NCBI GenBank assembly: GCA_963752995.1
Contig: CAVWAZ010000017.1
Span: 148,684-212,683, forward strand
Direction of reading: 5' to 3'
From: an uncultured delta proteobacterium
GTDB lineage: Bacteria > Desulfobacterota_D > UBA1144 > Nemesobacterales > UBA2774
DNA: 64,000 bases
The notes under the pieces are model-generated. The model had not been told where the DNA came from. It searched no databases and worked only from the letters and a program-made list of their open reading frames with translations. Position 1 is the first letter of the stretch. Each line of letters opens with the position of its first letter. Below are positions 3,633 through 58,860 of this stretch, in pieces. Made by a program: the position numbers and the translations under genes.

Positions 3633-3985
<353 letters not shown>

Positions 3986-4001
3986 TCTTTATCCGTGATC
4001 T

Positions 4002-44173: not shown

Positions 44174-44330
44174 CCTTCGCCGGCGTAACTTTCAGCCCCG
44201 GCGAGTACGTCTACGCGGACGGCACGGGGATCATAGTGTCCGCGGAGCCCTCAGGATGCCGGGCGGGTGACACCGCGGGCATACGATTCTCCGTCGCCCA
44301 GTCACCCGTCATTCGAGTTTGTCAAAACGC

Positions 44331-44494
44331 TCTTCCCGACATTACAGAATTTGCGTTAAGAAAATCGATTGTACGAGCGTTAAAAATCTTCCACGGGCTG
44401 GGGAGAATTGGAAGATTTAGCGAGTACATGAGATTTTTAGCAAATTATGTAGTCGGATGATTTTTGCTTCTTTTATCAGGAAAAGAAGGATAAA
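44331..44494 (+). repeat. Long-hairpin mosaic element, copy A
   Basis: Hairpin core 44336-44456 (CCGACATTACAGAATTTGCG...GTAGTCGG), then a U-rich tract and a second hairpin CTTCTTTT-ATCAG-GAAAAGAAG. A degenerate tail extends to about 44590. Confidence 0.85.
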
Positions 44495-44740
44495 GCTTTT
44501 CTTCCTAGTCTTTTCATAAAAAAGGTTGTCTGCCTTTTGCTTTCTTCGTCATCCGGAACCGCTCCAAGGGGGGTAAATATGGGGGAGCATTCCGCCGCTC
44601 GCAATGCCCCGCATACCGGGCCACGCCCCCGCTAAAATCTATTGATAATAATTTGAAAATAATCTACAATGGAGACAGCAAGGACCTCTCACCATTAATC
44701 TATATCAGACGATGATGACTGAGACCAGAGCGGAGGAGCA

Positions 44741-46615
44741 ATGAAACTTCTACTCATTAACCCGAGATTCCCGGAGAGCTTCTGGAGCTTCAAATGGGCC
44801 GTTGATAACATCATGCCCAGGGATGTAAGGACGATAAACCCGCCCCTCGGGCTCGCCACGCTGGCCGCCCTCAGCCCCCCCGATTGGGAAATCGAAATAA
44901 TAGACGAAAACATAGAGACCATACCGCTTAACCCCGTAGCCGACGTCATAGGCATCTGCGGCATGGGGGTGCAGTTCCAGAGGCAAAAGGAGCTTCTCAG
45001 GTTCTACAGGAACAGGGGTTACTACGTCGTGGCGGGCGGAAGCTACGCCTCGCTCTGCCCGGAGTACTTCGAGACCCTCGCCGACACGGTAGTCGCCGGA
45101 GAGGCCGAATACATATGGAAAAGGTTCTGTACGGACTACGACAACGGCTCCCCGCAAAAGCTCTACAAGGAATGCGAAGAGGTCTCGCTCGAGGATTCCC
45201 CCACGCCCAGGTTCGACCTGCTCAAGCTCGACAAGTACCAGGCGGTGAGCCTCCAGTTTTCGAGAGGGTGCCCGTACCGCTGCGAGTTCTGCGACATCAT
45301 AGTCATGTTCGGCCGGAAGCCGCGCGTGAAGGCGTTCGAGCAGGTGGGGAGGGAGCTCGACGAGCTCCGGAAGCTGGGCGTCACGAACGTATTCTTCGTC
45401 GACGACAACCTCATCGGGAATAAGCCCGTCGCGAAGAAGCTAATGGCTTATCTGAGGGACTACCAGAAGGAGCACGGCTACCAATTCCTCTTCGGCACCG
45501 AGGCGTCGCTCAACATAGCGCAGGACGACGAGCTGCTCGACCTCTTCAGGCAGGCCAATTTCGGATGGGTATTCATAGGCATAGAGTCCCCGGACGAGGG
45601 GAGCTTGAAGGAGACACTCAAGTTCCAGAACACGAGAGGCAACATTCTCGATTCCATAAGGCACGTATATTCATACGGCATAGAGGTGCTGGCGGGCTTC
45701 ATCATAGGGTTCGACAACGATACCGTCCGCACGTTCGACCTCCAGTATAATTTCATCCAGAATTCGGGCATACAGGCGGCGATGATCGGGCTCCTGACGG
45801 CGGTGCCGAAAACCCCGCTCTACGAAAGGCTCGAAAAGGACGGCCGTCTCATAAAGGACGCGAGCGGGACGGACAACACCAAGCTCGGCACGAACCTCAT
45901 ACCCAAGCAGATGACCTACGAGGAGATGGTGGACGGCTACCGCGAGCTCTACTTCAGGCTCCTCGACGACCGCACCATCGCGGACCGGATTTTAAACAAA
46001 ACAACTTATCTGAAGGACCCGCTCTTCAGGAGCACTTACGGCATCGCCGAACAGGCGCGCGCGCTCGGGAGGTTCATAATGAACGGCATCGCGCCCGGCG
46101 GCCTGCCCAGGGCATATCAATTCCTGAGGACGTTCCCCTTCACGAACCCCGGCATGATACCGCTCGTCATACAGGACTGGACCATCGGCATATCGATGAG
46201 GAACTACGTCGACCGTCATTTCGCGAGGGTCACGGACGAACAGGCGAGCCTCGCCAAAAACCACCTGGCCACGTTCGAGCTGTCGTTCGGGCGCTACCTC
46301 GACAGGGGCGTGCTCGAGGTCTCCCTCGAAAGGGTCCGGAACGCCGCGCACAACCTTTCCATATCCATAAAGGGCATGCTCGACGTGGACTTCTTCGACA
46401 GCGTCGGGACGCACCTGGAGAGCGTGCTCAGGGATACGCCCTCGTCCGTCACGCTCAAGATCGAGGAGATCCACGATACCGAGCGCCAGCACCTCCACAG
46501 GCTCTTCGACCGCCTCTCGCGCCACGGGGACAGGATATACATAGCAGTAAACGAGAAGCTCCGCGACAAGGTGCACATCGATTCCTCCGTATTCAACCTC
46601 GTTCTCGAAGGGTAA
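44741..46615 (+). CDS. B12-binding-domain radical SAM protein with DUF4070-type C-terminal extension
   Basis: 624 aa, N-terminal cobalamin-binding-like domain (LLINPRFPESFW...PPLGLATLAA...DVIGICGM), radical SAM cluster motif SRGCPYRCEFCDI, and a long helical C-terminal domain. Confidence 0.85.
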   Translation: MKLLLINPRFPESFWSFKWAVDNIMPRDVRTINPPLGLATLAALSPPDWEIEIIDENIETIPLNPVADVIGICGMGVQFQRQKELLRFYRNRGYYVVAGGSYASLCPEYFETLADTVVAGEAEYIWKRFCTDYDNGSPQKLYKECEEVSLEDSPTPRFDLLKLDKYQAVSLQFSRGCPYRCEFCDIIVMFGRKPRVKAFEQVGRELDELRKLGVTNVFFVDDNLIGNKPVAKKLMAYLRDYQKEHGYQFLFGTEASLNIAQDDELLDLFRQANFGWVFIGIESPDEGSLKETLKFQNTRGNILDSIRHVYSYGIEVLAGFIIGFDNDTVRTFDLQYNFIQNSGIQAAMIGLLTAVPKTPLYERLEKDGRLIKDASGTDNTKLGTNLIPKQMTYEEMVDGYRELYFRLLDDRTIADRILNKTTYLKDPLFRSTYGIAEQARALGRFIMNGIAPGGLPRAYQFLRTFPFTNPGMIPLVIQDWTIGISMRNYVDRHFARVTDEQASLAKNHLATFELSFGRYLDRGVLEVSLERVRNAAHNLSISIKGMLDVDFFDSVGTHLESVLRDTPSSVTLKIEEIHDTERQHLHRLFDRLSRHGDRIYIAVNEKLRDKVHIDSSVFNLVLEG

Positions 46616-46730
46616 GAACAGGGGCGCAGAACCTGTGTTTTATGATCCTTCCGCCGCTCCTCTGCATCATAGCCGGCAACGTACCCAGAACCCGTTCGAT
46701 CGCCTGAGCTTGTCGAAGCAAGCGCGCATC

Positions 46731-47010
46731 TTTTTCCTTCCCGACATTACAGAATTTGCGTTAAGAAAATCGATTGTACGAGCGTTAAAAATCTTCCACG
46801 GGCTGGGGTTGAATTGGAAGATTTAGCGAGTACATGAGATTTTTAGCTAATTCTGTAGTCGGATGATTTTTGCTTCTTTTCATCAAGGAAAAGAAGGATA
46901 AAAAAAACAGCCTTTCTCCCTAGTCTTTTCTTAAAACACACTCTGTGTGTCGCGGCTGGCCGTCCCGGACTGACCCGGGAAGCCCGCTCCTACAGATTGG
47001 GGAGAGGAAA
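46731..47010 (+). repeat. Long-hairpin mosaic element, copy B (full mosaic)
   Basis: Hairpin 46741-46862. Second hairpin 46873-46896. ACACACTCTGTGTGT palindrome. REP-like TCGCGGCTGGCC...GCCCGCTCCTAC. GGGGAGAGGAAA at 47000-47010. Confidence 0.85.
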
Positions 47011-47174
47011 TCTAGAACGCATAAACAAACACCTTCCTCCATCAAAGGCTTCAAAACCTTGTCACCCTAAAACGCGGTTTCGACCTTCCGTATTTGTTAT
47101 TCATAAACCGCATTGCGTGTGGTATCTTTGTTTTTTCCATCAAGGAAAGAAAATTTACTTACAGGGGTATTATT

Positions 47175-48197
47175 ATGTCCGTGAAAGACCCGTTCTCCAT
47201 AATGCGCACAGGTTTCGGATTCTGGGAATCCAAAGTGCTGCTCACCGCTGTCGAATTCGACCTGTTCACGAAGCTGGGCGACAATTCCATGACCGCCGAG
47301 GGGATAGGCGAGATGCTCTCCCTCCAATCGAGGGGCACGCGGGACTTCCTCGACGCGCTCCTGTCGATGGGGTTCCTCGAGCGGGAAGGGGACGGCCCTG
47401 GGGCGCTCTACCGGAACACCGAAACGACGCGCATATACCTCGACAGGGATAACCCGTCCTACATGGGCGGCATCCTCGAGATGCTCAACAAGCGCCTATA
47501 TAAATACTGGGACGACCTGGGCGAAGCGCTCCAGACCGGAAAAGCCCAGAACGAGATCAAGCACAGCCAGAAGCCCCTCTTCGAGGAGCTATACTCGGAC
47601 ATCCCGCGCCTCGAGCAGTTCATGTGGGCGATGGCCGGCATATCGCGCCACAATTTCATAGCGCTCGCGCAGAAGTTCGACTTCTCCCGTTTCAGGACGC
47701 TATGCGACGTGGGCGGCGCGGCGGGGGTGCTCTCCATAGCCGTCGCCGAAAAGCACCGTAACCTGATTTGCACGTCCTTCGACCTCCCCGAGGTCGAGCC
47801 CATCGCGAAAAGGTCGATAGAGCGGGCGGGGCTGTCCGACCGCGTGTCGACTGCGGCGGGGGACTTCTTCCGCGACCCGCTGCCGAACGCGGACGTTGTA
47901 ACGATGGGGATGATACTCCACGACTGGAACCTCGAGAAGAAGAAGCAGCTCATAAGGTCGGCTTACGAGGCCCTTCCCGAAAGGGGGGCGTTCATCGTGG
48001 TCGAGAACCTCATCGACGACGCCCGCAGGGAGAACACGTTCGGGCTCCTGATGTCCCTCAACATGCTCATCGAGACGGGCGAGGGGTTCGACTACACGTC
48101 GGCCGATTTCAACGAATGGTGCGCCGAGGCCGGGTTCAAAAAGTTCGAGGTGCTCCACCTGATAGGCCCTTCGAGCGCTGCGATTGCGTATAAGTAG
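47175..48197 (+). CDS. Class I SAM-dependent O-methyltransferase (family 2, with N-terminal dimerisation/winged-helix domain)
   Basis: ATG 47175 (MSVKDPFSIMRTGFGFWESKVLLTAVEFDLFTKL...). SAM motif LCDVGGAAGVLS...SFDLPEV...GDFF.D.LP.ADV..MG.ILHDW. The ORF track starts at 47094. Confidence 0.85.
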   Translation: MSVKDPFSIMRTGFGFWESKVLLTAVEFDLFTKLGDNSMTAEGIGEMLSLQSRGTRDFLDALLSMGFLEREGDGPGALYRNTETTRIYLDRDNPSYMGGILEMLNKRLYKYWDDLGEALQTGKAQNEIKHSQKPLFEELYSDIPRLEQFMWAMAGISRHNFIALAQKFDFSRFRTLCDVGGAAGVLSIAVAEKHRNLICTSFDLPEVEPIAKRSIERAGLSDRVSTAAGDFFRDPLPNADVVTMGMILHDWNLEKKKQLIRSAYEALPERGAFIVVENLIDDARRENTFGLLMSLNMLIETGEGFDYTSADFNEWCAEAGFKKFEVLHLIGPSSAAIAYK

Positions 48198-48439
48198 GGA
48201 TTCTTCTGCCGCGTCAATCCCGCCATTTCCTTTTAATTCCTTCCCCCAAACCGGGGTGGACAAAAGGGGAGCAGTACATCAATATATATGTGCTCATATA
48301 AAAACAATACTCTAAAATTGCGTTCGCAATGCGCTGCCCGCGGGAGGACGGTAGTTTTCATCTACTTCTCAGCGTTCCGGAAGCACCGCACAGCGGTCCG
48401 CGAGAGCATTGATCATTCTTTTTTTGGGAGGGTATTTCT

Positions 48440-49573
48440 ATGAAGACGCGCGTCCTGATTCTTGGAGCGGGTTTCGGAGGCCTCGAGCTCAGCACTCTCT
48501 TGTCGGAGGCGTTCGGCGATGAGGTCGATGTGACCCTCATCGACAAGAACGACCACTTCATTTTCGGCTACTCGAAGCTCGACGTGATGTTCGGCCTGAC
48601 GACGCCGGATGCCGTCCGTCTGCCGTACCGCAACTTTGTAAAAACGGGCGTGCGCTTTCTGCAGGAGACGATTACCGCGATTGATCCGGACGCGCGGCGC
48701 GTCACGACCGATGCCGGCAGCTACGAGTCCGATGTCATGGTCGTCGCGCTCGGCGCCGACTACGACCTCGACGCCACGCCGGGACTGGCCGATGAGGGCA
48801 GCGAGTTTTACTCCGAAGCCGGGGCGGAGCGGATGCGCGGGATAGTCCACAATTTCTCAAAAGGCCGGGCCATCATCGGCGTTTCCGCGGCGCCGTACAA
48901 GTGCCCGCCGGCGCCGAGCGAATGCGCGCTGCTTCTGCACGACTACCTGACGAAAAAGGGCGTCCGCAGCCGATGCGAAATTACACTGGTGCTGCCGTTG
49001 GGGAGCCCGGTGCCGCCGTCGCCCGAGACTTCCAGGGCGCTGGTCGGCGCCTTTTCGGAGCGCGACATCAAGTTTGTCCCCAGCCGCCGCGTGGCTTCGC
49101 TTGACCCCGGACGCCGCGTCGCGGTGCTGGACGACGGCAGCGAGCTGCCCTACGACTTATACCTGGGTGTGCCCAGGCACCGTGCGCCGAAGGTCGTCGA
49201 GGAAAGCGGCATGGCCGAGAACGGCTGGGTACCCGTCAATCCGAGGACGCTCGAAACACGATTCCCCGGGGTGTACGCAGTGGGTGACATCGCGAATACC
49301 GGAACGCCAAAGGCGGGCGTGTTCGCCGAGGCCGCGGCTCGCGCCGTTGCGGCTTCGCTCACCGCGCGCATACGCGGGGGCGGGCAGTCCGGGGCTTACA
49401 CCGGCGCGGGTTCCTGCTACATCGAGTTTGGCGCCGGGCGGATCGGCCGGGTGGACGTGGATTTCTTCTCGGGGCCTTCGCCAACGGGTACGTACCACGA
49501 GCCTTCAGTCGCCATGCGGTCCGAAAAGGAGCATTTCGGTTCGAGCAGGCGCGCCCGCTGGTTCGGCCTGTGA
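48440..49573 (+). CDS. FAD/NAD(P)-binding oxidoreductase of the sulfide:quinone reductase / NDH-2 type
   Basis: 377 aa, VLILGAGFGGLE dinucleotide fold, ...YKCPPAPSECALLL..., ...VYAVGDIAN...PKAGVFAE. Confidence 0.75.
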   Translation: MKTRVLILGAGFGGLELSTLLSEAFGDEVDVTLIDKNDHFIFGYSKLDVMFGLTTPDAVRLPYRNFVKTGVRFLQETITAIDPDARRVTTDAGSYESDVMVVALGADYDLDATPGLADEGSEFYSEAGAERMRGIVHNFSKGRAIIGVSAAPYKCPPAPSECALLLHDYLTKKGVRSRCEITLVLPLGSPVPPSPETSRALVGAFSERDIKFVPSRRVASLDPGRRVAVLDDGSELPYDLYLGVPRHRAPKVVEESGMAENGWVPVNPRTLETRFPGVYAVGDIANTGTPKAGVFAEAAARAVAASLTARIRGGGQSGAYTGAGSCYIEFGAGRIGRVDVDFFSGPSPTGTYHEPSVAMRSEKEHFGSSRRARWFGL

Positions 49574-49695
49574 TTCATGCAATAGCGTATGCCGGCATCG
49601 GCCTGTCACAATGTCTCAATCATGTCATCGCGGGCCGAAATAAAAAAGGGAGCCGAAGCTCCCTTTTGGTATTTAGTTTTTAATGCCGTTTGACC

Positions 49696-50382
49696 TTACG
49701 CGGCGGCTTTCCTTCTTCTCGCGATCAGAAGTCCGGCCAGTCCCAGAATGCCGGCCATCGCGATCAGGCCCCATTCTGAGAGGGTGGGGATTGGTCTCGA
49801 CGTAGTAGTCGTATAGACGATGCGCTCGAATGCCGTAGATTCGTTCAGGTCCTCTGTCACGCCGCACCTGTATCCGCCTTCGCCTATTAGCAGGTGCCAG
49901 CATAGCCTTTCATCGTTAGCGCCGCTCGATTCGGTATCGCAATTGTTCTTCCTCACACTGTCCCCCGCCCTTACGAATCCCCAGGCGTTCTGGCCTGGCT
50001 CAGTTTCACCTGGAGCTGATATGTTGAAATACCAGCCCACGCCGTTGGCGATATGAGTAACATCCAAATTCTCGCCTGTATCGAAAGTCACATCCTCTCG
50101 CGCGCCCTGGGCGAGGAGGGTCAGCGTACTGCTCCCGGTCGGCCGGCAGGACAACATGAGGAGATCGCCGGGACATCGCTCAAGCACGGTTTCCGCATTC
50201 AGTTGGTTGTCATAGGTATCCCTGTAACACTCGATCCATCCGCCTGTGGAAACGACGGAGACGGGAACGTCCACCTGCGGCCCGACGGGCAGGTAAGTCT
50301 GGGCGTTGGCTTCGTGGCTGATCAAGGCTATCGACATACACAGGAAAATAATCAACGGCAGGATATTAATTCCGTTTCTCAT
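49696..50382 (-). CDS. Secreted protein with IPTL-CTERM sorting signal
   Basis: ATG 50382 follows an AAAGGAGGA RBS (MRNGINILPLIIFLCMSIALISHEANA signal peptide; the ORF track extends to 50658). C-terminus RPIPTLSEWGLIAMAGILGLAGLLIARRRK. Confidence 0.75.
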   Translation of the reverse strand: MRNGINILPLIIFLCMSIALISHEANAQTYLPVGPQVDVPVSVVSTGGWIECYRDTYDNQLNAETVLERCPGDLLMLSCRPTGSSTLTLLAQGAREDVTFDTGENLDVTHIANGVGWYFNISAPGETEPGQNAWGFVRAGDSVRKNNCDTESSGANDERLCWHLLIGEGGYRCGVTEDLNESTAFERIVYTTTTSRPIPTLSEWGLIAMAGILGLAGLLIARRRKAAA

Positions 50383-50472
50383 CGAACATCCTCCTTTAAT
50401 TAATGCTCTGTTCTGATGATTATATTTCCTAACGGGGGGTTGTGTCAATGCGGCGTGCGCGATTGCTGTAGA

Positions 50473-50830
50473 ATCCGACAGATCCGACATATCCGCGGAG
50501 TATATACCCTGCGCGTCTGTCGGATGTGTCGGAAGATGGAAATCTGTCATTGCAACGATTTCGAGCGTGCGAGGAATCGGTCGCCATTGGCTAATTGCGA
50601 ATAAGCACCTTATTCGTCGTACCAAGGTCACAAAAACCAAATTACGAAGGCGCGGCAATCTCCTGAATAAAGATGAGATCCTGAAACAAGTTCAGGATGA
50701 CGGAAATGCGAGATCGCCACGGCCACAAAACGGTCTCGCGATGACAGAAAAGAGAGCCGTCTTTGCGAGCTGCGAAGCAGCGCGGCAATCTCACCCCTGC
50801 CTGTCATTGCGAGGGGGGGCAGAGATCACA
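50473..50830 (+). repeat. Mosaic block of intergenic repeat modules (left of the Cys-rich gene)
   Basis: Modules: ATCCGACAGATCCGACATATCCG...TCTGTCGGATGTGTCGGA..AAATCTGTCATTGC (50473-55), ATCCTGAAACAAGTTCAGGAT, AGATCGCCACGGCCACAAAACGGTCTCGCGATGACAGA (50711-48), GCGAGCTGCGAAGCAGCGCGGCAATCTCA (50765-93). Confidence 0.75.
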
Positions 50831-50925
50831 GAGTCTCTACCCCCCTTAAAGGTCAAACTAGATTTCAGAAGTATAACAATATCTGTTGAAGACTCTTCAA
50901 TTGTTATAACTTTTTGAGACTATTC

Positions 50926-51669
50926 TTAAATACATGCACCCTCATCTACCTCTCCGTCACAGTCATTATCTATTTCATCGCAGATTTCTTCTTCAGGAAC
51001 GCATTCATCCGGTCGTACGCAGCCGCAGTCGGATGGAGGTGAAGTTTGGTCAAGTTCACAGCTTCCTACAACGTCTACAGTACCTGGCACTATACACTCA
51101 CCGCCACAAGCAGCACGTGCATCACACGGATCAGACGGTACGCAGAGACAGTCCAATTCGCCGGGTGCAAGCTGTGTACAGATTCCAGAATTACCGGCTT
51201 CGTCCGTGCATTCGCCACCACAGACCGCACGCGCATCACATGCCTCACCTGTTTTAAAAGCAGGCGTGCAAAGATAATGCGGGTTGAATTTCTTTAGTGT
51301 CCTTATCCCGAACTGATCTTCAACCTCTACGTTTTCCGGAACAGGATTCTGTCCCTGTTTCTGAGGGCACTCTATACGGTAGCATATGCTGTCAGGCGCA
51401 TCTGGAAATATTGGGAAGTCTGACGGAGGATCGACCGTTTTGTTTACCCCACCACAAAAGAACCTTTCCTTGCCTATGATCTTACAGTCCTGAGCTATAC
51501 CGAACTGACGAGACAATAGGGCTACATCTTCTTTTACTTTTAAAGGGTCTTTCACCATGTAGCATTCGAGATGATCGTAAGGAATTGGAGCAACACCTGC
51601 AATACCTACAGCCGGCAAAAACATCAGGAACACAATAACTGGAGCAAAGATTCTTAGCATTCTAAACAT
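50926..51669 (-). CDS. Secreted cysteine-rich protein with C-terminal MopE-like CxxxDxDCDGxxDE motif
   Basis: 247 aa, GGAGG RBS, signal peptide. Duplicated module CDARA.CGGEC...C......DC.CVP.D.C. Ends EEICDEIDNDCDGEVDEGACI. AT-richer than the core genes. Confidence 0.7.
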   Translation of the reverse strand: MFRMLRIFAPVIVFLMFLPAVGIAGVAPIPYDHLECYMVKDPLKVKEDVALLSRQFGIAQDCKIIGKERFFCGGVNKTVDPPSDFPIFPDAPDSICYRIECPQKQGQNPVPENVEVEDQFGIRTLKKFNPHYLCTPAFKTGEACDARAVCGGECTDEAGNSGICTQLAPGELDCLCVPSDPCDARAACGGECIVPGTVDVVGSCELDQTSPPSDCGCVRPDECVPEEEICDEIDNDCDGEVDEGACI

Positions 51670-52211
51670 TTCACTTGCCTCCTATAATTTATTTGTTTTT
51701 CATGCTAAATCATAAGAATATGATTATTCCCCTTCACTGTTATTGTGTGTAATGCCAAGCTTAGTCCATTGGAATCACCCCCCAATTCTGGATTTTCTCA
51801 GTCTTTGGTCCTGATTGGAGTGAGACTTCGAGCGATTGTTGTGACGCAGTTTGAGTGGCCCGATCCCCGGGAGACCCGCTTTCGAGTACAAGCATATTCC
51901 CATCACCCTAAATTAAGATCAGATTAAAAGGGGGGGGTCACATATGAACTGGGATGCAATTTACATACAGAGGGGAGTGCAAAATAATACGAGATTGAAC
52001 TATTGCAATCCAGCCGCCTTAAACACTAAGTCCTTAGGCCTGTGACTTTGCGTCCCACTCTTTCGAATGGTTTGCCCTTTTAGTCTATAATGAGTTTAAT
52101 ACAAAACTGTCGATAAAGTCAATCTGCTTAACATGATCTGAATAAATGGGGGAGACTACGGTCACCCTTTTTGGTCAACAGGACAAACAGAACATCCACC
52201 CCTCCCCCCTC

Positions 52212-52372
52212 ATCCGACAGATGCGACACATCCGGGGGGTATATACTCCGGGGATCTGTCGGATGTGTCGGATGGTCCAAATCTGTCATTGCGAGCTGCG
52301 AAGCAGCGCGGCAATCTCAATAATAACAAGACAGATCGCCACGACCACAAAACGGTCTCGCGATGACAGATA
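52212..52372 (+). repeat. Mosaic block of the same repeat modules (right of the Cys-rich gene), module order permuted
   Basis: 52212-52295 matches 50473-50555. 52291-52319 matches 50765-50793. 52333-52370 matches 50711-50748. Confidence 0.75.
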
Positions 52373-52456
52373 GGTGCCCCCAGCCCCCCCGGAATTTGAC
52401 AACACGCTATAAATATGAATAATTTTACCCTTTCACAGCAACAGGAGGAGTATATC

Positions 52457-52768
52457 ATGCAGGCGGTAATTAAAACCGGCGGAAAACAGTACAGCGTAAA
52501 CAAAGGCGACGTTATAGACGTAGAGCTCCTGCCCGGGGACCCCGGCGACGTGGTCGAATTCAAGGAAGTGCTCCTGGTTGCGGACGAAGGCGTGACCACC
52601 ATAGGCTCGCCCGTCGTCGATAACGCGGTCGTAAAGGCGAAGATCCTCGGCACGAAGAAGGGCGAGAAGCTCATCATCTTCAAGTTCAGGAGAAGGAAGG
52701 ACTTCAGAAAGAAGACGGGGCACAGGCAGAAGTTCACTTCCATAGAGATCACGGAGATTTCCAAGTAA
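52457..52768 (+). CDS. rplU: 50S ribosomal protein L21
   Basis: [23 protein letters not shown]...[39 protein letters not shown] before ATG 52457 (the ORF track starts at 52415). Confidence 0.95.
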
Positions 52769-52787
52769 AGCAGGGAGGTAACCCAAA

Positions 52788-53048
52788 ATGGCAACAAAAA
52801 AAGGCGGCGGCAGCACCAGAAACGGCAGAGACTCAAGGGGCAGAAGGCTCGGGCTCAAAAAATTCGGGGGAGAGGTCGTAAAGGCCGGCAACATCCTCGC
52901 GAGACAGAGGGGCACCACGTTCCATCCCGGGCTCAACGTAGGCATAGGGCGGGACCACACCCTCTTCGCGCTCACGGACGGAGTCGTGGAATTCAAGACG
53001 TACAAGAAGACCAAGACCAGAATCAACATCCAGCCCCAAGAGGCCTAG
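52788..53048 (+). CDS. rpmA: 50S ribosomal protein L27
   Basis: [64 protein letters not shown]. Confidence 0.96.
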
Positions 53049-53350
53049 GCAAAGTCCCGGACCCTGAATCGGGAGCGCATCGTCAGCTTCCTTATGCGCG
53101 GGGGTTCCGGCGGGAAATAACGGCCCGGCATTCCGCAAATCCATTCATCCACGACAGGCCGGTTTCGCTCACCGCGGAGGCTTGAAAACAGCGCCGGGAA
53201 TTTTGTTAACACTCTGTTAAAATTTATCTTTACTAGTTAAATTATAGCCAGTATTATAAGGTAGCTTTTACTCTTTCAAATCTTCAACAGTGACGGACGC
53301 GCCCGCAGGTGTGCGCCGCGTTCGATCGGGCAGCCGGAGAATCGAGCTAA

Positions 53351-54585
53351 ATGGGATTAAAGTCCAGGTTAGGGAATATATATTCGGGAAACGCGATTGT
53401 CCTCGCTTTTATTTTCATTCTGATATCCGTATTGATCTCGCTCTTTAACTCCTACTATTTCACCACGACAGTTACGGAAGAAAGGGGCCAGGAGCTGGCC
53501 CAGCTTTTCAACACCACGGGCAAGAGCTTCGCCGACACGTCTAAGGACATACTCAATTCGAGGCCCGACATAGTGTATATAAAGCTACTTAACCCCGAAG
53601 GCGTGCTGCTCGAAAGCTTCGGCGGAGAGGAGACCGAGAACCTGGAGATCGTCCCCATAACGACACCCGAGAACAACACGATAGTCCTGGGCGTCTGGGA
53701 AAGGACTTCAAGAGCCTCGTGCTGTCGTCCCTCATGTGGAGCGCGCTCATCGGAGTGGCCGTTTCGGTCGTAGTCATATTCATATTGTCCCTATTCTCCT
53801 CGGGCAGGAACGACTCCATGGAAAAGCTCATCTCTGCGATGAAGAGCGTTTCCCGCGGGGACTACTCGGGCTCGAGGCTCGACCCCGAATCCTCGGACGA
53901 CGTGGCCACAATAAGGGCCTACGAGACCTTCAACCAGATGGTCGACCGTATGAGGAAGAGGGCCGACACCGAAGAGGAGCTGCCTCCCTTCCAGCCGCAG
54001 CTCATATCCTCGCACGACGAAGACGAAGACGAGGGCATCGTTTCGAGGCCGAGGAACGTGACCGTGGTGGTGGCGAAGATAGCCGACTTCCAGGAGCTCT
54101 CGAACACCCTCAAGCCTGCCGAGTTCAACGCATTCCTCGCCGATTACAGAAAAGCCGCCTCCGCCATCATCTCGAACTACGGCGGGGTGATCGAAGCCCT
54201 GCTAAAGGACGAAATAGTCGCTTTCTTCAACGCCCCCGATGAGCAGGTCAACGCGGAGCTCAAAGCCGTAAGCTCGGCCGTCGAGGTGCTCCAGCTCCTC
54301 GCCGGCATAACGAGGGACAGGAAGGTCGAGGGCAAGGCCGCCATCAGCGGAAAGATAGGCATAGGCATGAAGTCGGTCCCCGTTTACGAGGATTCGAGCA
54401 TGCCGCACGGCGTCAAGGAAGTCACCGACATCGCGAGGAGGATCTGCACGGTCTCGCCCGTATGGAGGGTGATAGTATCGTCCGACGTCTACGCGATAGT
54501 AAAGGACTACGTCGAAGCCCGCGAGCTCAAGCTCGGAAACGATTCCTACTATTCCATAGTGGGCGTCGAAGAAGGCGTGATCTAA
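53351..54585 (+). pseudogene. Membrane sensor: TM - extracytoplasmic domain - TM - HAMP - class III nucleotidyl-cyclase homology domain; 1 frameshift at ~53700
   Basis: ORF 53351-53773 (TM1 plus sensor) continues in ORF 53719-54585 (TM2 LMWSALIGVAVSVVVIFIL, HAMP ...VSRGDYS......IRAYETFNQMVDRM, cyclase-like VTVVVAKIADFQELSNTL.PAEFNAFLADY....SAIISNYGGVIEALLKDEIVAFFNAP). Confidence 0.7.
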
Positions 54586-54610
54586 AACCCCCGCATCCAA
54601 CTTTTGTCTT

Positions 54611-54715
54611 TTCTCTTCCCGACATTACAGAATTTGCGTTACAGAAAATCGATCGCTACGATCGTTACAAAATCCTTCTCACCGGAACGAACTTGTCAAG
54701 CGAGCGCGCATCGGA
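54611..54715 (+). repeat. Long-hairpin element, diverged 5'-arm-only half copy (C')
   Basis: CCGACATTACAGAATTTGCGTTACAGAAAATCGAT... (54619-54653) then a divergent 5' arm without a 3' arm, followed by the CTTGTCAAGCGAGCGCGCATC module also seen before copy B. Confidence 0.7.
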
Positions 54716-54720
54716 CACTC

Positions 54721-55003
54721 TTTCTTTCCGACATTACAGAATTTGCGTTAAGAAAATCGATTGTACGAGCGTTAAAAATCTTCCACGGGCTGGGGTAGAA
54801 TTGGAAGATTTAGCGAGTACATGAGATTTTTAGCTAATTCTGTAGTCGGATGATTTTTGCTTCTTTTCATCAAGGAAAAGAAGGATAAAGAAAACCAGCC
54901 TTTCTCCTTCTTCGTCTTTTCATAGACCCACACACTGTGTGTGTCGCGGCTGGCCTGTCCCGGGCTTGACCCGGAAACTCGCTCCTACAATTGGGGGAGG
55001 AAA
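54721..55003 (+). repeat. Long-hairpin mosaic element, copy C (full mosaic)
   Basis: Hairpin 54728-54849, a second hairpin, CACACACTGTGTGTG, REP-like TCGCGGCTGGCC...CTCGCTCCTAC, and GGGGGAGGAAA ending at 55003. Confidence 0.85.
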
Positions 55004-55107
55004 TACCGCCAGGTTTCGAACATACACCCATACGTCAACGACGACTCACGCGACCTCCCCCCGATTTGTCTCATTTTAACCTCTGGTGTAATCTATCCGG
55101 CATCATT

Positions 55108-56199
55108 ATGGAGAAAAAACGAATAGTCGTCGCCATGAGCGGCGGCGTCGACAGCACCACGGTGGCGGCGCTCCTTAAAAAGGAGGGCCACGACGTGATA
55201 GGCATCACCATGCAGCTCCTCGACTACGGGGACGCCGAAGGGGGGTGCTGCTCCCTCGACCAGGTCGTTGACGCGAGGAGGGCGGCCGCGGAGCTCGGCT
55301 TCCCGCACTACGTCGTCAACTTCACGGAGGAGTTCAATAAATACGTGCTGGTCGACTACGTGGACAAGTACATGTCGGGCAAGACCCCGATACCGTGCGT
55401 GCTCTGCAACAAGCACGTCAAATTCGACCTGCTTCTTCAGAAGGCCCTCGACCTGGGGGCCGACTATCTGGCGACGGGGCATTACGCGAGGATAGAAAGA
55501 GACCCCGGAACCGGCCTCCTCTCCCTTAAAAAAGCCGTCGACGAGTCTAAGGACCAGACGTATTTCCTCTACACCCTCTCCCAGAAGGAGCTCGGAAGAC
55601 TGATGTTCCCGCTCGGGGGAATGACCAAGGACGACGTCAGGGAGATAGCGAAGGGGTTCTCGCTCAGGCAGGCGGATAAGCCCGACAGCACGGGCGTCTG
55701 CTTCGTCCCGGGCGGCAACTACAGGGATTATCTCGAGGCCCGCTCGGCGTTCACCGCCGGAAAGGGCGATATCGTAAGCTCGGGCGGCCAGGTGCTCGGG
55801 ACACACAGGGGCGTATTCTCGTTCACAGTAGGGCAGAGGAGGGGCCTCGGAATAGCTACCGGGAAGCCCATGTACGTCACCCGCATCGAGCCCGGATCGA
55901 ACCGCGTATACGTCGGCGGCGAGACGGAGCTCTACAGGACGAAACTCATAGCGGAAGACATCACTTGGGTTGATAATATAAATATTGACAATATGTTAGA
56001 TGACATACTTAAAGTTAGCGCCAAGGTCAGGTACAGGCACCGCGAAAGCCCCGCCGAGCTCAGGATGTGGAGCGGCTCGGAAGGCATGCTCGAATTCAGG
56101 GACCCGCAGAGGGCCATTACCCCCGGCCAGGCGGTCGTGTTCTACGGCGGCGACAGGGTGCTGGGGGGAGGGTGGATTAAAGAGGTGCTGCCGCAATGA
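55108..56199 (+). CDS. mnmA: tRNA-specific 2-thiouridylase
   Basis: MEKKRIVVAMSGGVDSTTVAALLKKEGHDVIGITMQL...GCCS..D..DA...A..LG.PHYV.NF...F...V...Y..G.TP.PCV.CN..KF. ATG 55108 (the ORF track starts at 54991). Confidence 0.95.
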   Translation: MEKKRIVVAMSGGVDSTTVAALLKKEGHDVIGITMQLLDYGDAEGGCCSLDQVVDARRAAAELGFPHYVVNFTEEFNKYVLVDYVDKYMSGKTPIPCVLCNKHVKFDLLLQKALDLGADYLATGHYARIERDPGTGLLSLKKAVDESKDQTYFLYTLSQKELGRLMFPLGGMTKDDVREIAKGFSLRQADKPDSTGVCFVPGGNYRDYLEARSAFTAGKGDIVSSGGQVLGTHRGVFSFTVGQRRGLGIATGKPMYVTRIEPGSNRVYVGGETELYRTKLIAEDITWVDNINIDNMLDDILKVSAKVRYRHRESPAELRMWSGSEGMLEFRDPQRAITPGQAVVFYGGDRVLGGGWIKEVLPQ

Positions 56200-57494
56200 A
56201 GACCATATCGGTCGTGACCCTCGGCTGCAAGGTGAACCAGTACGACACGGCGGCGATCCTCAACAGGCTCCCCGGGAGCAAATACGTCCGCGTGCCGTTC
56301 CCCGAAAAGGCCGACGTCTACGTGATAGATACCTGCACGGTGACGCACAGGGCGGACGCCGAGGCGAGGCACTACATACACAGGGCGAGGCGGGCGAACC
56401 CCGAGGGCGTCGTGGTCGTAACGGGCTGTTACGCACAGGTGTCGGCCGACGAGATAAAAGAGCTGACGGACGTAGACTACGTCGTCGGGAACTCGCACAA
56501 GTTCTCCGAACTGATAAAAATAATACGCGAAGGGGAGACCCAGACCGAACCGAAATTATTCGTATCCGACATATTCAAAGAGAAGAAAAAGGGCTTCGAG
56601 ACGCCCGGCATCGAATCCTTCCCCGGCAGGACGCGCGCGTTTCTGAAGGTACAGGACGGGTGCAATTACGCCTGCACGTTCTGCATCATACCCCGCGCGA
56701 GGGGCAGGTCGAGGAGCCTCCCCGTAGCCGACATACTGGAGAGGATGGAGACGCTCGCCGGGGCCGGGTACAAGGAGATCGTACTTACGGGAGTCCACAT
56801 CGCGAGCTACGGGAGGGACATAGGCTCTAGCTTCGAAGAGCTGTTAAGGTGCATAGAGCGGGAGAAGATAGTCGGGCGCGTGAGGCTCACGTCGCTCGAC
56901 CCCGCGGATACCGAACCCGGGCTTATCGAATTCATAGCCGGGGCCGAGACAATATGCCCGCAGTTCCACGTCGCCCTACAGAGCGGCGACGCCGAGGTGC
57001 TCAAGAGGATGAGGAGGCGCTACGCCCCCGACAGGTTCCTCGCCCTCACTGACCTCATCAGGGAAAGGATCCCCGACGCGGCCATAGGCTCTGACATAAT
57101 GGTCGGGTTCCCCGGGGAGACGGACGAGGAATTCAGGAACACCTGTGAGATAGCCGGCCGGTCGGCGCTCACATATTTCCACGTATTCCCATATTCGAAG
57201 CGGAAGTCCACGCCCGCCGCCGCCATGCCCGGGCAGGTGCGGCCGGAGACAATAAAAGAGAGGAGCGCCATACTCCGGGAGCTCGGCATAAGGAAGAAGA
57301 CCGAATTCTACAGGGGCTTCATCGGGCGCACGCTCCCGATACTCGTCGAGACGGGAGGGAAGGGCACCACTCCCAACTACATACCCGTGAGGCTTACGGG
57401 CGGAAAATATGCCCCGGGCGAAGAGATAGAGGTCACGATCACGGGGATTTCGGGCGAAGAAGCGCTTGCGGCCCCCATCCGCGACGCCTCCTGA
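56196..57494 (+). CDS. mtaB: MiaB-like radical SAM methylthiotransferase (MtaB type)
   Basis: 432 aa, VVTLGCKVNQYDT..., radical SAM motif GCNYACTFCIIP, TRAM-like C-terminus. The ATGA start overlaps the mnmA stop. Confidence 0.88.
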   Translation: MKTISVVTLGCKVNQYDTAAILNRLPGSKYVRVPFPEKADVYVIDTCTVTHRADAEARHYIHRARRANPEGVVVVTGCYAQVSADEIKELTDVDYVVGNSHKFSELIKIIREGETQTEPKLFVSDIFKEKKKGFETPGIESFPGRTRAFLKVQDGCNYACTFCIIPRARGRSRSLPVADILERMETLAGAGYKEIVLTGVHIASYGRDIGSSFEELLRCIEREKIVGRVRLTSLDPADTEPGLIEFIAGAETICPQFHVALQSGDAEVLKRMRRRYAPDRFLALTDLIRERIPDAAIGSDIMVGFPGETDEEFRNTCEIAGRSALTYFHVFPYSKRKSTPAAAMPGQVRPETIKERSAILRELGIRKKTEFYRGFIGRTLPILVETGGKGTTPNYIPVRLTGGKYAPGEEIEVTITGISGEEALAAPIRDAS

Positions 57495-57514
57495 TCCCGT
57501 ATTAACCATAGAGA

Positions 57515-58433
57515 ATGAATAAACGTTTTATACCCCTGCTTATACTCCTGATATTCACAATCGCGTCGTGCCATGTAGGCTCGTTGTCGGGTAAGGAGCT
57601 CACCGAGGCCGACTGGTTCGTCCCCGAGGAGACGCTCACCGTCTGGGCGCTCTCGGACACCCACATCAAGAACGAAAAGCACATGAAACCCTTCCGTAAC
57701 GCGGTCGAGGACGTGAACGACAACGTCCCCGACGTGGACATGGCTATAAACGCGGGAGACGTCGCCGATTTCCCGACCGTGGAGAGTTACGACCTCTACA
57801 TAAAGGCGAGGGACGGGTCGTACATAAAGGAATGGTACGAGATAATCGGAAACCACGACTATAAAACGGACAAGGGGAATATATTCAGGAAAAAATTAAG
57901 GGGGGGAGGGGACGGGCATTACACGGTCGAGAAGGGGAACATCCTCTTCATATTCCTGTCGAACGAAGACAGGGGTAAGGCCACCGTCATAACGGACGAG
58001 ACTTTCGAGTGGTGGAAGGACCTGGTCATAAAGAATCAGGACAAGATTATAGTCGTCACGTCGCACGCGCCCCTTCAGGGGAGCGGCATAATGTTCTCGG
58101 CCATAGACGAGAGGCAGATAACGGACTCGAAGAGGTTCAGGGAAGTGCTCAAGGAAATACAAAGTCGATATATGGCTCTCGGGCCACCTCCATATCCCCC
58201 AGTCGCTGCCGGACACCATCGTCACACAGGAGGACTTGGGCGGGACGACGTTCATCGAGATATCCTCCATACGCCCCGACCTCGGGGGCATGAAGGAGCC
58301 CGAATCGAGGGTGCTCACGTTCGCCTGCGGCTCGGACAAGATGCTCGTCCGGTCGCGGAACCACGAGCGCTATTTCTACACCCCCGGCCTAGATAAGGTC
58401 ATCACGCTGTCGAAGCCGTATGAGTGCGATTGA
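57515..58433 (+). pseudogene. Lipoprotein metallophosphoesterase, 1 frameshift at ~58160
   Basis: Lipobox LIFTIASC. ...WALSDTHI...NAGDVAD...IIGNHD...VVTSHAPL. Own translation of the +1 frame continues YKVDIWLSGHLHIPQ...TTFIEISSI... up to the stop at 58433. Confidence 0.8.
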
Positions 58434-58530
58434 AATTAAATGCGTTCGTCCTTTCTTTAAATCCCCTCTCCCTTGAGGGGAGAGGGTGAAGGGTGAGGGC
58501 TGTAGCTTATCACTACAATCAATCAAGAAG

Positions 58531-58860
58531 TCTTTTCTTCCCGACATTACAGAATTTGCGTTAAGAAAATCGATTGTACGAGCGTTAAAAATCTTCCACG
58601 GGCTGGGGTTGAATTGGAAGATTTAGCGAGTACATGAGATTTTTAGCAAATTATGTAGTCGGATGATTTTTGCTTCTTTTCATCAAGGAAAAGAAGGATA
58701 AACAAATAGTCTTTCACCTATTTATTTGTCTTTTCTTTATCTCTGTAATTCGCGGCTGGAAGCCGCTCCTACAATTGGGGGAGGAAAAGAAGGATAAAAA
58801 AAACAGCCTTCTCTTTGTCTTTTCATAAAACACACATTGTGTGCCACACAACGTGTGTCA
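58531..58860 (+). repeat. Long-hairpin mosaic element, copy D (modules rearranged)
   Basis: Hairpin 58541-58662 and second hairpin. Then a unique spacer, REP-like TTCGCGGCTGGAAGCCGCTCCTACAATTGGGGGAGGAAAAGA (to 58790), a repeated AAGGATAAAAAAAACAGCC.. tail, and an ACACACATTGTGTG palindrome abutting the stop of the minus-strand VWA gene. Confidence 0.8.

Follow-up and report, generated by a model that had tools for sequence, protein, structure and literature searches.

A 64,000-nt stretch of DNA, referred to here as the window, carries four full copies of a long hairpin, all in one orientation, and raises the question of whether the hairpin is a structured-RNA module or a mobile DNA element. 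The first-pass annotation left both readings standing.

Anatomy of the repeat and its copies in the window

The hairpin, named H1, is an interspersed, gene-less repeat of approximately 116-126 nt, with a shape like that of a MITE or REPIN. A polypyrimidine tract lies upstream of nearly all copies and is followed by a 20-nt 5' handle (CCGACATTACAGAATTTGCG), an inner stem that varies but is paired throughout, and a 3' arm, usually with a short second hairpin module downstream. The handle is invariant across at least six species whereas the remainder of H1, including the 3' arm, is less conserved. The two arms form a long, imperfect inverted repeat whose tips are conserved (CCGAC...GTCGG), but the handle also heads other, non-palindromic bodies, and its 3' partner is variable.

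Both the repeat search and the covariance model recover the four full copies noted at first pass; the half copy is also confirmed, and all five lie on the + strand. Copies A (44336-44456; 138.1 bits), B (46741-46862; 139.2 bits), C (54728-54849; 139.1 bits) and D (58541-58662; 144.6 bits) belong to subfamily S1 and share 95-100% identity; the model finds no additional match over the other 60 kb of the window. Handles are absent from the first 44 kb and number five in the next 15 kb (four full hairpins, one truncated copy). The truncated copy starts at 54619, as first described, with the handle and 5' arm (54619-54675), but does not end at 54685. It extends to approximately 54716 on the + strand because a degenerate remnant of the 5' part of a ~90-nt loop element (GGAACGAACTTGTCAAGCGAGCGCGCATCGGACAC) adjoins the 5' arm, and it aligns with loop-insert-bearing hairpins at three loci (L070, L019, L055). 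The ~90-nt element sits exactly in the apical loop of approximately 25% of H1 hairpins, and two further families of palindromic repeats carry it in their loops as well.

The hairpin in the window is real. With RNA parameters, copy B and its flanks (46736-46900) fold at -53.9 kcal/mol on the + strand (z = -5.0) and at -44.6 kcal/mol on the - strand (z = -5.5). H1 structure has been maintained through compensatory change in at least five subfamilies, with compensated helices such as TCTTCCA/TGGAAGA, TCTTTCA/TGAAAGA and TGTTTTA/TAAAACA. In the H1 alignment 98.9% of cells are paired, compared with 35-50% after a shift of the 3' partners by 1-3 columns; both sides change in six pairs (84 cells), and the covariation score of 0.100 (0.043 when shuffled) is reached in none of 500 shuffles.

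The + strand tails are assembled from modules. Copy A is followed (44457-44518) by ATGATTTTTG, an 8-bp variant of the second hairpin, an A-rich linker, a pyrimidine tract and GTCTTTTCATA. The tail of copy B (46863-46950) comprises ATGATTTTTG, a 9-bp hairpin (46873-46896), GATAAAAAAAACAGCCTTTCTCC, GTCTTTTCTTA and a CACAC palindrome (46936-46950), and that of copy C (54850-54944) has the second hairpin at 54860-54883, GTCTTTTCATA at 54914 and a CACAC palindrome at 54930-54944. After copy D (58663-58858), the second hairpin (58673-58696) is followed by an extra stretch of ~84 nt (about 58711-58794), a half second hairpin (58782-58797), GTCTTTTCATA at 58817 and two CACAC palindromes ending at 58858. 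The U tract ATGATTTTTG with a 9-bp hairpin (CTTCTTTTC/GAAAAGAAG), ascribed to every copy, therefore holds for B, C and D but not for A with its 8-bp variant; the first-pass description of the CACAC palindromes, REP-like module and GGGGGAGGAAA is accurate. The pair TCTTTTCTTCCC ... GGGGGAGGAAAAGA, proposed as an outer inverted repeat, is no terminus: its left part is the polypyrimidine tract found 5' of nearly all copies, and its right part is a junction of REP and half second hairpin inside the extra stretch. Across genomes, ATGATTTTTGCT lies downstream of 94 of 104 GTCGG-ending hairpins, and tail motifs are co-oriented with H1 by 167:3 and 101:1 across loci.

Other repeats accompany H1. Co-polar, handle-less repeats occur on the + strand at 44260-44310 (the 'o' body, GCGGGTGACACCGC-GGGCATACGATTCTCC...GTCATTCGAG, which follows a handle at other loci) and at 46634-46728 (the 'b' body, TGTGTTTTATGATCCTTCC...CCCGTTCG..CTGAGCTTGTCGAAGC). 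A palindromic repeat, CCCCTCTCCCTTGAGGGGAGAGGG(TGAAGGGTGAGGG), lies 5' of copy D at 58464-58500. On the - strand there are GTAG-type REPs with a small extra palindrome in the loop at 46950-46993 (GTAGGAGCGGG...CCAGCCGCGA) and, from the same family, at 54944-54988, and a canonical one at 58750-58773 (GTAGGAGCGGCTTCCAGCCGCGA). The former family flanks RAYT genes at five loci (L149, L214-L217), and the canonical REP is identical to REPs around the RAYT gene in L149. The module called 'REP-like' is a true GTAG REP, and the lineage encodes the cognate RAYT transposase; 'BIME-like mosaic' is an apt description. H1 is one member of a lineage-specific intergenic repeat mosaic in a sub-clade of Candidatus Dadabacteria.

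Spread and turnover

The handle occurs 401 times in the ~1.3 Mb sampled, which covers at least six Dadabacteria MAG species and many metagenome contigs. H1 is found at a minimum of 77 genome loci, in at least six MAG species, and at a minimum of 120 metagenome loci; the covariance model detects 70 further full hairpins in 100 metagenome loci outside its training set.

Orthologous sites differ in their repeats. At the site of copy D, L024 (94% nucleotide identity) carries an S2 hairpin where the window has S1, a different repeat at the position of the upstream palindrome, and no ~84-nt extra stretch with its REP. Two loci with a radical SAM protein 96-97% identical (L078, L211) differ in their repeats at each of the two sites that bracket the radical SAM gene. 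In L079, L213, L080 and L081 (86-77%) the intergenic regions are short and repeat-free, with the promoter region of the gene retained, and the covariance model finds no H1 copy in L079-L081. No clean pair of an empty and a filled site was found among the orthologous sites compared. H1 proliferates and turns over as DNA. It is MITE-like if the term is taken broadly, for a DNA repeat that proliferates without being autonomous: several species carry it, in hundreds of copies, the content of orthologous sites varies by strain, and the sites are empty in more distant relatives. The MITE-like alternative of the first-pass annotation survives in this sense, together with its mosaic and the lack of a known RNA family, but the RNA alternative is not supported. 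H1 behaves like mobile DNA and unlike a conserved RNA gene, and its family is a previously undescribed group of selfish intergenic repeats in one Candidatus Dadabacteria lineage.

Polarity and its competing explanations

All H1 copies on a contig share one orientation. Mixed orientation is seen in none of 34 multi-copy contigs (including 45/45, 17/17 and 12/12) and in none of 48 multi-copy loci of an independent sample, or 0/82 contigs or loci together. Coding GC skew is -0.010 in genes co-oriented with H1 versus +0.094 in opposed genes (p = 2e-24), and -0.0145 versus +0.115 in a second independent sample (p = 1e-33). AT3 skew is +0.064 versus +0.010 (p = 5e-4), and per-locus skews agree on contigs of the long-read MAG. 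Genes are divided roughly 50:50 between the two strands (~52% co-oriented with H1), so transcription does not explain the contig-wide polarity or its link to GC and AT skew; the skews indicate that H1 orientation follows the compositional asymmetry of the strands, not transcription. The leading strand is usually G- and T-rich, and by this rule the + strand of the window would be the lagging-type strand and its complement would be on the lagging-strand template. tRNA and tmRNA genes are 10:2 co-oriented with H1 (~5 independent loci), a bias which suggests that the H1 + strand could be the leading strand. The single orientation remarked on in the window is an instance of a polarity that holds strictly along whole contigs and is tied to strand composition and, indirectly through skew, to replication.

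It is highly probable that H1 is a mobile or selfish DNA repeat that is polar with respect to replication. H1 may move, or be copied, at the replication fork by way of an intermediate of single-stranded DNA, and its polarity would then be set at insertion because of that intermediate; the hairpin and invariant handle may be features recognised by a trans-acting enzyme. The single-stranded mechanism by itself is offered tentatively. The whole statement, that H1 is a non-autonomous, replication-polar hairpin DNA repeat spreading via single-stranded DNA at the fork, is the reading that we lean towards. Single-strand hints are found in the apical-loop inserts, the Y1/HUH transposases present in the lineage and the IS200/IS605 precedent.

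When every ORF of 100 aa or more in ~1.3 Mb was screened for HUH motifs, one RAYT only and no H1-linked enzyme came up. Likewise, ~1.3 Mb yielded no TnpA_IS200 or TnpB gene and no gene-carrying H1 parent; between a handle and the 3' arm that follows it, the distance is 368 nt at most. At the five RAYT loci the flanking repeats are exclusively GTAG REPs, never H1. A Y1 enzyme alone gives no polarity here, because the REPs that are RAYT substrates are non-polar relative to H1 (78:62).

Orientation could instead be kept by selection and not set at insertion, with H1 as a host-selected polar chromosomal signal for replication, repair or segregation, comparable to KOPS, Chi, a primosome assembly or single-strand initiation hairpin, or a protein-binding site. 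Strict polarity relative to strand composition and an invariant handle beside a variable remainder fit such a signal, as does the polarity shared by unrelated neighbouring repeat families (228:12; CTGAGCTTGTCGAAG, 187:18; 'b' body, 69:1; 'o' body, 42:0). However, this explanation is unlikely: the spread is patchy, with an H1-free 44 kb in the window and 45 handles within 72 kb of one contig, related Dadabacteria of the same gene order are entirely without H1, and near-identical strains differ in content. Polarity of 100% over hundreds of copies is also rare from selection alone.

We consider it quite improbable that H1 is a structured-RNA module selected on the transcript, whether a large terminator, a 3'-UTR stabiliser against exonucleases or an sRNA. 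In 89 of 90 copies RNA parameters favour the fold of the + strand (mean -39.5 versus -32.3 kcal/mol), but the two strands of 46741-46862 fold about equally with DNA parameters (-21.7 on + versus -20.9 kcal/mol on -). G-U pairs are tolerated, one being conserved in 73 of 78 copies, and their A-C counterparts are almost absent; this conserved pair and the fold asymmetry leave room for an RNA-level effect. Regions with gene 3' ends are favoured (51 convergent versus 21 divergent), and REPs and ERIC elements are known to influence mRNA stability (PMC3733652). That every copy follows a + strand gene is correct inside the window, but elsewhere the upstream gene is co-oriented with H1 in 64% and opposed in 36% of 166 intergenic regions, and of the copies within tandem gene pairs 55 lie sense and 39 antisense (p = 0.12), an orientation independent of the neighbouring genes. 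A simple terminator scan called neither the H1 hairpin nor the second hairpin; the U tract begins 4 nt past the H1 stem, and A, not U, follows the second hairpin. Orthologous loci do not retain the same copies even where the proteins are 96-97% identical, the contig-wide polarity with its skew link is not explained by transcription, and the scan of Rfam 15 was negative, in keeping with the earlier remark that no known RNA family was recognised.

A classical MITE, i.e. an internally deleted derivative of a DDE-transposase IS moved by double-stranded cut-and-paste via terminal inverted repeats, is very unlikely. The inverted arms with conserved tips, intergenic location and copy number are MITE-typical, and one IS1595-type DDE transposase is found among the 150 ORFs closest to handles. 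DDE MITEs insert in either orientation, and a cut-and-paste MITE would show no contig-wide polarity, whereas H1 is uniform in 82/82 multi-copy contigs or loci. No target-site duplication is found at the hairpin borders, which are flanked by a pyrimidine tract of variable sequence on the 5' side and mostly by ATGATTTTTGCT on the 3' side. A handle that also heads non-palindromic bodies with varying 3' partners is unlike a pair of equivalent ends for transposase binding; covariation is seen in the inner stem among subfamilies, and no element has a gene between its arms. Finally, local segmental duplication or an assembly artefact in the 14.5-kb stretch, suggested by the clustering and near-identity of the window copies, is refuted by the genome loci, metagenome loci and model-found hairpins counted above (hundreds of copies across several species, long-read assemblies included), and the genes that separate the copies in the window occur once each and keep their synteny with repeat-free relatives, leaving a negligible probability.

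Comparison with known systems

Chromosomal integron attC sites (e.g. the 123-126 nt sites of Vibrio cholerae) resemble H1 as ~120-nt imperfect palindromes in one orientation, with conserved ends and a centre that is variable yet paired, and they recombine as folded single strands. In chromosomal integron arrays, orientation is set relative to replication. Unlike attC sites, H1 ends lack RYYYAAC/GTTRRRY core sites, H1 copies are separated by conserved housekeeping genes in fixed synteny and not by cassettes, and no integrase was seen.

ERIC/IRU elements of enterobacteria, Correia elements of Neisseria and TIRYTs, whose TIR repeats flank Y1 transposases, are also imperfect palindromes of ~120-150 bp that are intergenic, often transcribed and of lineage-specific copy number. 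We know of no report of strict replication polarity for these families. Rfam, plasmid and phage searches with H1 gave no match, and no sequence similarity to these elements was detected. RAYT-like genes with long flanking TIRs and moderately abundant TIR repeat families have been described (PMC3733652); unlike TIRYTs, H1 has no Y1 gene found between its arms.

REPINs and BIMEs, which are REP doublets mobilised by the Y1 transposase RAYT (TnpA_REP), share with H1 a high copy number, intergenic location and a hairpin of ~100 nt (PMC3116915, PMC3333891, PMC3733652). Both form mosaics with nested and adjacent insertions, have compensated subfamily stems and favour convergent and tandem gene 3' ends, and a single-stranded DNA mechanism is thought likely. 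Genomes with H1 also carry true GTAG REPs and RAYT genes. However, H1 does not consist of two short GTAG- or CGTC-tagged palindromes and flanks no RAYT gene; it is strictly polar, unlike the local REPs, and its conserved part is an asymmetric handle which also heads non-palindromic bodies.

IS200/IS605 elements and their gene-less derivatives, the palindrome-associated transposable elements, are hairpin-dependent with no target-site duplication seen, as is H1. The lagging-strand template is their documented target, and orientation is fixed relative to replication as a result of insertion via single-stranded DNA at the fork (PMC6006769, PMC3333891). They differ in having two like-oriented subterminal hairpins in place of long inverted arms and in inserting 3' of a fixed 4-5 nt target; by skew, the lagging-strand-template strand would be the complement of the H1 handle strand as written. 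Movement in the IS200/IS605 style could nonetheless serve, by analogy, as a model for H1 insertion polarity. To our knowledge, IS200/IS605 single-strand insertion is the only well-documented mechanism that predicts polarity of the H1 type.

Fold, handle and distribution of the H1 hairpin

The ~122-nt hairpin repeat H1 is present in the window as four full copies, A (44336-44456), B (46741-46862), C (54728-54849) and D (58541-58662), all on the + strand. The first-pass annotation had described them as near-identical; a repeat search recovers all four together with shared flanks at 95-100% identity, and a covariance-model scan of the window returns no others, scoring these four 138-145 bits on the + strand against ~38-41 bits on the - strand. 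The modules listed beside them, namely a second hairpin, CACAC palindromes, a REP-like module and GGGGGAGGAAA, are likewise all found. A half copy had been placed at 54619: its 5' arm is real, and its end is corrected to ~54716, the arm being joined to the degenerate start of an element that occupies the loop of other copies. With RNA parameters, the + strand of copy B and its flanks (46736-46900) takes the proposed form of a long, bulged hairpin and reaches -53.9 kcal/mol (z = -5.0), the - strand of this interval -44.6 kcal/mol; with DNA parameters the hairpin alone is about equally stable on both strands (-21.7 vs -20.9 kcal/mol).

The hairpin is maintained across the family. Ninety unique H1 copies form at least five subfamilies whose inner helices differ in sequence and keep their complementarity (TCTTCCA/TGGAAGA, TCTTTCA/TGAAAGA, TGTTTTA/TAAAACA, TCTATCA/TGATAGA, GTTTAAGC/GCTTAAAC, TTAAGGC/GCCTTAA and GTTAACGC/GCGTTAAC). 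Standard pairs fill 98.9% of cells in a 78-sequence alignment, a share that falls to 35-50% once the 3' partners are shifted by 1-3 columns. Both sides have changed at six pairs (84 cells, a count that overstates independent events because the copies are kin by descent), and the covariation score of these same related sequences is 0.100 vs 0.043 in shuffles, with 0/500 shuffles reaching it. The pattern of compensation across subfamilies is clear. Conservation of the two arms is lopsided. The 20-nt 5' start, or handle, is invariant, the sequence paired with it on the 3' side is variable (AATTATGTA or AATTCTGTA, with small insertions), and the handle also starts other bodies that have no complementary arm; it is therefore conserved as sequence and not merely as one half of a helix. 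The termini CCGAC/GTCGG are paired, the handle is preceded at -11 to -1 by a pyrimidine tract without a fixed word (last base C in 86%), and ATGATTTTTGCT lies directly 3' of 94/104 hairpins ending GTCGG. Two other explanations of these sequences were rejected: the handle as the end of a - strand peptide (...PQIL*), on reading the sequence, the upstream parts being wholly unlike between bodies; and a promoter within the hairpin, for which there is a single 9/12 match.

The family is widely spread. A 20-nt core of the 5' arm has at least 77 matching stretches in a collection of species-representative genomes, and all those matches listed fall in MAGs, of at least six species, that carry the label Candidatus Dadabacteria or Thermodesulfobacteriota. 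The handle CCGACATTACAGAATTTGCG matches at least 120 metagenome stretches, 401 handles were counted in all DNA sampled, and a set of 100 metagenome loci left out of model building contains 70 full hairpins by the covariance model. Nine viral-classed IMG/VR contigs match a 17-nt core of the handle, seven of them with the full 20 nt as well; these may be misclassified Dadabacteria fragments or proviruses. Local duplication could explain four copies with shared flanks in one window, and it is dismissed by this distribution.

The earlier statement that H1 belongs to no known RNA family agrees with Rfam 15, of which no family reaches its gathering threshold for H1. At that threshold the window holds only a tmRNA gene (3634-3987, +, 176 bits) and a c-di-GMP-I riboswitch (52001-52086, -, 76 bits), both away from the repeats, and 18 repeat-rich loci give tRNAs only. 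With permissive settings, a tailed copy and a copy with a loop insert yield only chance-level matches (E >= 0.06, scores far under thresholds). H1 has no blastn match in plasmid and phage collections, and a literature search on Dadabacteria repeats returned no relevant report.

Polarity of H1 and of its neighbours

H1 has a strict, replication-linked polarity. In a first sample of 59 handle-bearing contigs, 34 are multi-copy and none is mixed in orientation (45/45, 17/17, 12/12, 9/9, 8/8); an independent sample of metagenome and viral sequences adds 48 multi-copy loci, again with none mixed, so that orientation is uniform in 82/82 multi-copy contigs or loci. Genes in these loci are ~52% co-oriented with H1, and the uniform orientation is therefore not an effect of gene strand. 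Coding-strand GC skew is -0.010 in co-oriented and +0.094 in opposed genes of the first sample (p = 2e-24), and -0.0145 and +0.115 in the second (p = 1e-33). GC3 skew in the first sample behaves alike (-0.108 and +0.013, p = 1e-18), AT3 skew over all loci is +0.064 and +0.010 (p = 5e-4), and the per-locus skew agrees in 16/18 loci (three contigs, one long-read MAG). Strand asymmetry independent of transcription is a signature of replication, and H1 is thus polar with respect to replication, a link read from strand skew and not from a mapped origin. The lagging-type strand is usually rich in C and A, and by this rule the + strand as written would be of the lagging type. The sign of the polarity (leading or lagging) stays provisional, because tRNA and tmRNA genes, 10:2 co-oriented with H1 in only ~5 independent loci, hint at the opposite. 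The GC-skew profile of the window itself is too flat for reading the direction of replication.

Most neighbouring modules have the polarity of H1. Relative to it, the counts of co-oriented to opposed copies are 101:1 for GTCTTTTCATA, 69:1 and 42:0 for the 'b' and 'o' bodies, 228:12 for GCGGCAATCTC, 187:18 for CTGAGCTTGTCGAAG and 167:3 for the second-hairpin tail. Nesting in hairpin loops is a further property of these sequences. In about 25% of H1 hairpins a ~90-nt element occupies precisely the apical loop, with CGGG before it and GGGG after it (e.g. L019:4055-4150 and L016:7160-7250 among many sampled loci, with a remnant at window 54676-54716); the 227 handle-to-arm intervals include 161 plain ones, 48 with ~90 extra nt and ~10 with ~170. 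Its layout is ACGATTCC-GAGCAAGNNA-GGAATCG-GACGCCC...CTAATT, and the hairpin in its 5' part occurs in compensated variants (ATTCC/GGAAT or AATGC/GCATT). The same element lies within the loops of two more palindromic families (GTCATTGCGAG...GCGGCAATC and CCCTCCCC...GGGGAGGG) and is unmatched in Rfam. It resembles a miniature element aimed at hairpin loops.

REPs, short GTAG-tagged palindromes, are non-polar (78:62 relative to H1). The module first described as REP-like is a true REP, its other strand reading GTAG followed by a G+C-rich palindrome (GTAGGAGCGGCTTCCAGCCGCGA), and the module TCGCGGCTGGAAGCCGCTCCTAC, distinct from H1, has the REP form of a 20-40 nt palindrome with an unpaired GTAG or CGTC tag at one end. 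A tblastn search of the first 77 loci with E. coli RayT and IS608 TnpA gave zero hits; an HUH-motif regular expression applied afterwards found one RAYT, the Y1 transposase associated with REPs, as a 154-aa protein encoded at L149:4146-4607 (Pfam Y1_Tnp, E = 3e-13). It is bracketed by window-type REPs in inverted orientation, the REPtron arrangement (L149:4081-4750), and its gene is visibly A+T-rich against its surroundings. Homologues are 60-93% identical, some named RayT or Dadabacteria transposase in their sources, and four homologue loci that were fetched (L214-L217; three proteins, 60-70% identical) have GTAG REPs at their flanks. Two REP types, GTAGGAGCGGCTTCCAGCCGCGA and GTAGGAGCGCCATCCTGGCGCGA, occur across these five loci, and neither the handle nor an H1 arm lies beside their RAYT genes. 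By association, the RAYTs present act on the non-polar REPs.

In IS200/IS605 elements orientation is set through single-stranded DNA at the replication fork (PMC6006769, PMC3333891). By analogy, the orientation of H1 would be fixed by insertion or copying via single-stranded DNA at the fork, and a trans-acting enzyme may recognise the hairpin together with the handle. A bolder reading, which we consider improbable though conceivable, takes H1 and the repeats that share its polarity as the output of an undescribed replication-coupled, strand-specific writing of short non-coding DNA into intergenic regions. Those repeats are the loop-insert element, palindromes of the GCGGCAATC and CTGAGCTTGTCGAAG types, and the bodies 'b', 'o' and 'c' that begin with the handle. 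The reading has two forms. In one, a new class of miniature elements would be directed by a non-RAYT enzyme to pyrimidine tracts and single-stranded hairpin loops at the fork; in the other, the repeats would be polar single-strand hairpin signals used by the host. A polar signal selected by the host would suit the uniform orientation and the invariant handle, and would have to accommodate the differences between close relatives at orthologous sites.

Turnover at orthologous sites and flanking genes

H1 is a DNA repeat that proliferates and turns over fast. At the site of copy D, locus L024 (flanking genes ~94% identical in nucleotides) has a hairpin of subfamily S2 in place of the S1 type of the window, a different upstream repeat, and no ~84-nt REP-containing downstream stretch. 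Around the radical SAM gene, the repeats at both sites are largely different in two loci with 96-97% identical proteins (L078 and L211), and at site A the second of these has no H1 whatever. In L079, L213, L080 and L081 (86-77% identity) the intergenic regions are 57-203 nt long and repeat-free, the radical SAM gene still has its promoter-proximal sequence in L079, L080 and L213, and the covariance model finds zero H1 copies in L079-L081. L212 is likewise a locus without H1. CACAC-type palindromes followed by ATACGATTC are seen directly past stop codons (e.g. TGACACACACAATGTGTGTATACGATTCCTC) in these H1-less relatives (L079:18660-18700, L080:15460-15560); because it is kept there, the CACAC-type module predates the handle and hairpin and is more widely spread.

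The structured-RNA module offered as an alternative in the first-pass annotation would suit the greater stability of the + strand fold with RNA parameters. Among 166 distinct intergenic regions with H1, 55 are tandem sense, 39 tandem antisense (p = 0.12 for the difference), 51 convergent and 21 divergent. Regions at gene 3' ends are favoured, as they are by most selfish intergenic repeats, and the orientation of H1 is independent of transcription. An intrinsic terminator has a G+C-rich stem directly followed by a U tract, in sense after a gene; 39/94 tandem-context regions are antisense, and a simple terminator scan makes no call at H1 or at the second hairpin. Because of the turnover at orthologous sites, the gene orientations and this empty scan, H1 is not a conserved RNA element of its flanking genes.

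The repeats affect assembly and annotation. Short-read Dadabacteria assemblies are broken by them, and many orthologous contigs stop there; close orthologues of the radical SAM gene often lie on 2-5 kb contigs hardly longer than the gene, consistent with assembly breaks at the flanking repeats. Spurious or extended ORFs also arise. An RraA-like gene (43781-44460) is frameshifted near residue 125, and its C-terminal part runs on in the frame of ORF 44038-44460, loses its usual stop, crosses copy A and stops at the TGA within GTCGGATGA; the explanations are a pseudogene, an ORF extended by the repeat or a sequencing error.

An internally palindromic 81-nt sequence (ATCCGACAGATCCGACA...TCTGTCGGATGTGTCGGA) has two copies, 84% identical, one (52212-52292) a short way upstream of the c-di-GMP-I riboswitch (- strand) and the other (50473-50553) adjoining a perfect 12/12 sigma-70-like promoter (50448-50419, -); the pair may be a common operator or regulatory region. 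Paralogous secreted IPTL-CTERM proteins (IPTLSEWGMIAAAAGL...RRKR sorting signal) are encoded at 41741-42190 (-) and 42558-43193 (-). This family also occurs in L016, L059, L068, L074 and L077, often in tandem arrays, and is over-represented in repeat-dense loci (21 members). Within - strand ORFs at 489-2494 there are four repeats with 132-138 nt spacing (1191-2020) and a 300-nt repeat pair (489-788 and 2195-2494), probably encoding a repetitive protein.

Enzyme searches and comparison with known systems

Interspersed palindromic repeats are common in bacteria, and to our knowledge the way in which most of them spread is not known; likewise, we know of no cultured members of the candidate phylum Dadabacteria. 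In the sampled loci there is no gene-carrying parent of H1, the largest split of a hairpin being 368 nt, and ~1.3 Mb of these loci contain neither a TnpA_IS200 (Y1) gene nor a full-length element with H1 ends. Screens for TnpB-like zinc-ribbon and reverse-transcriptase motifs gave a single candidate without a Pfam domain. A Pfam scan of the 150 ORFs nearest to handles returned, among the matches listed, housekeeping genes, IPTL-CTERM surface proteins and one IS1595 transposase, and clustering of multi-copy proteins for transposases gave the IPTL-CTERM family only. Polar intergenic repeat families beside non-polar REP/RAYT in the same genomes offer a natural contrast on what orients single-strand DNA mobility, and the polar set points to an element that inserts precisely in hairpin loops.

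A classical DDE-type MITE would share the paired, inverted termini of H1. Such elements have target-site duplications around their terminal inverted repeats, whereas the H1 borders have none, nor matching direct repeats in the flanks; no clean pair of empty and filled sites that would fix the ends was found among the orthologous sites compared. Integron attC sites have RYYYAAC ... GTTRRRY core sites with cassette ORFs between them, whereas H1 ends in CCGACATTACAG ... CTGTAGTCGG and the genes between its copies are housekeeping genes, syntenic in repeat-less relatives.

By its shape and ecology H1 comes nearest to REPINs/BIMEs and to palindromic repeats of the ERIC or Correia-like kind, and by its polarity to IS200/IS605 derivatives; it lacks defining features of REPINs/BIMEs and of IS200/IS605 derivatives alike. 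REP/REPIN units are 20-40 nt palindromes with an unpaired GTAG/CGTC tag, flank their cognate RAYT gene and are found either way round, usually in inverted pairs, whereas H1 is a single ~122-nt hairpin with paired termini, does not flank such a gene and is uniform in orientation. With IS200/IS605-derived elements H1 shares the orientation bias relative to the replication strand, with no mixed contigs and with both GC and AT skew. Those elements have no terminal inverted repeats and two like-oriented subterminal hairpins, whereas H1 consists of a single long inverted repeat, and the second hairpin and CACAC palindrome 3' of it are mutually unrelated in sequence. They also insert 3' of a fixed tetra- or pentanucleotide and leave no target duplication; none is seen at H1, where the 5' flank is a pyrimidine tract. 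H1 belongs among the non-autonomous hairpin repeats and is distinguished from them by a complete replication polarity that is common to several co-resident families, the REP/RAYT system of the same genomes being non-polar.
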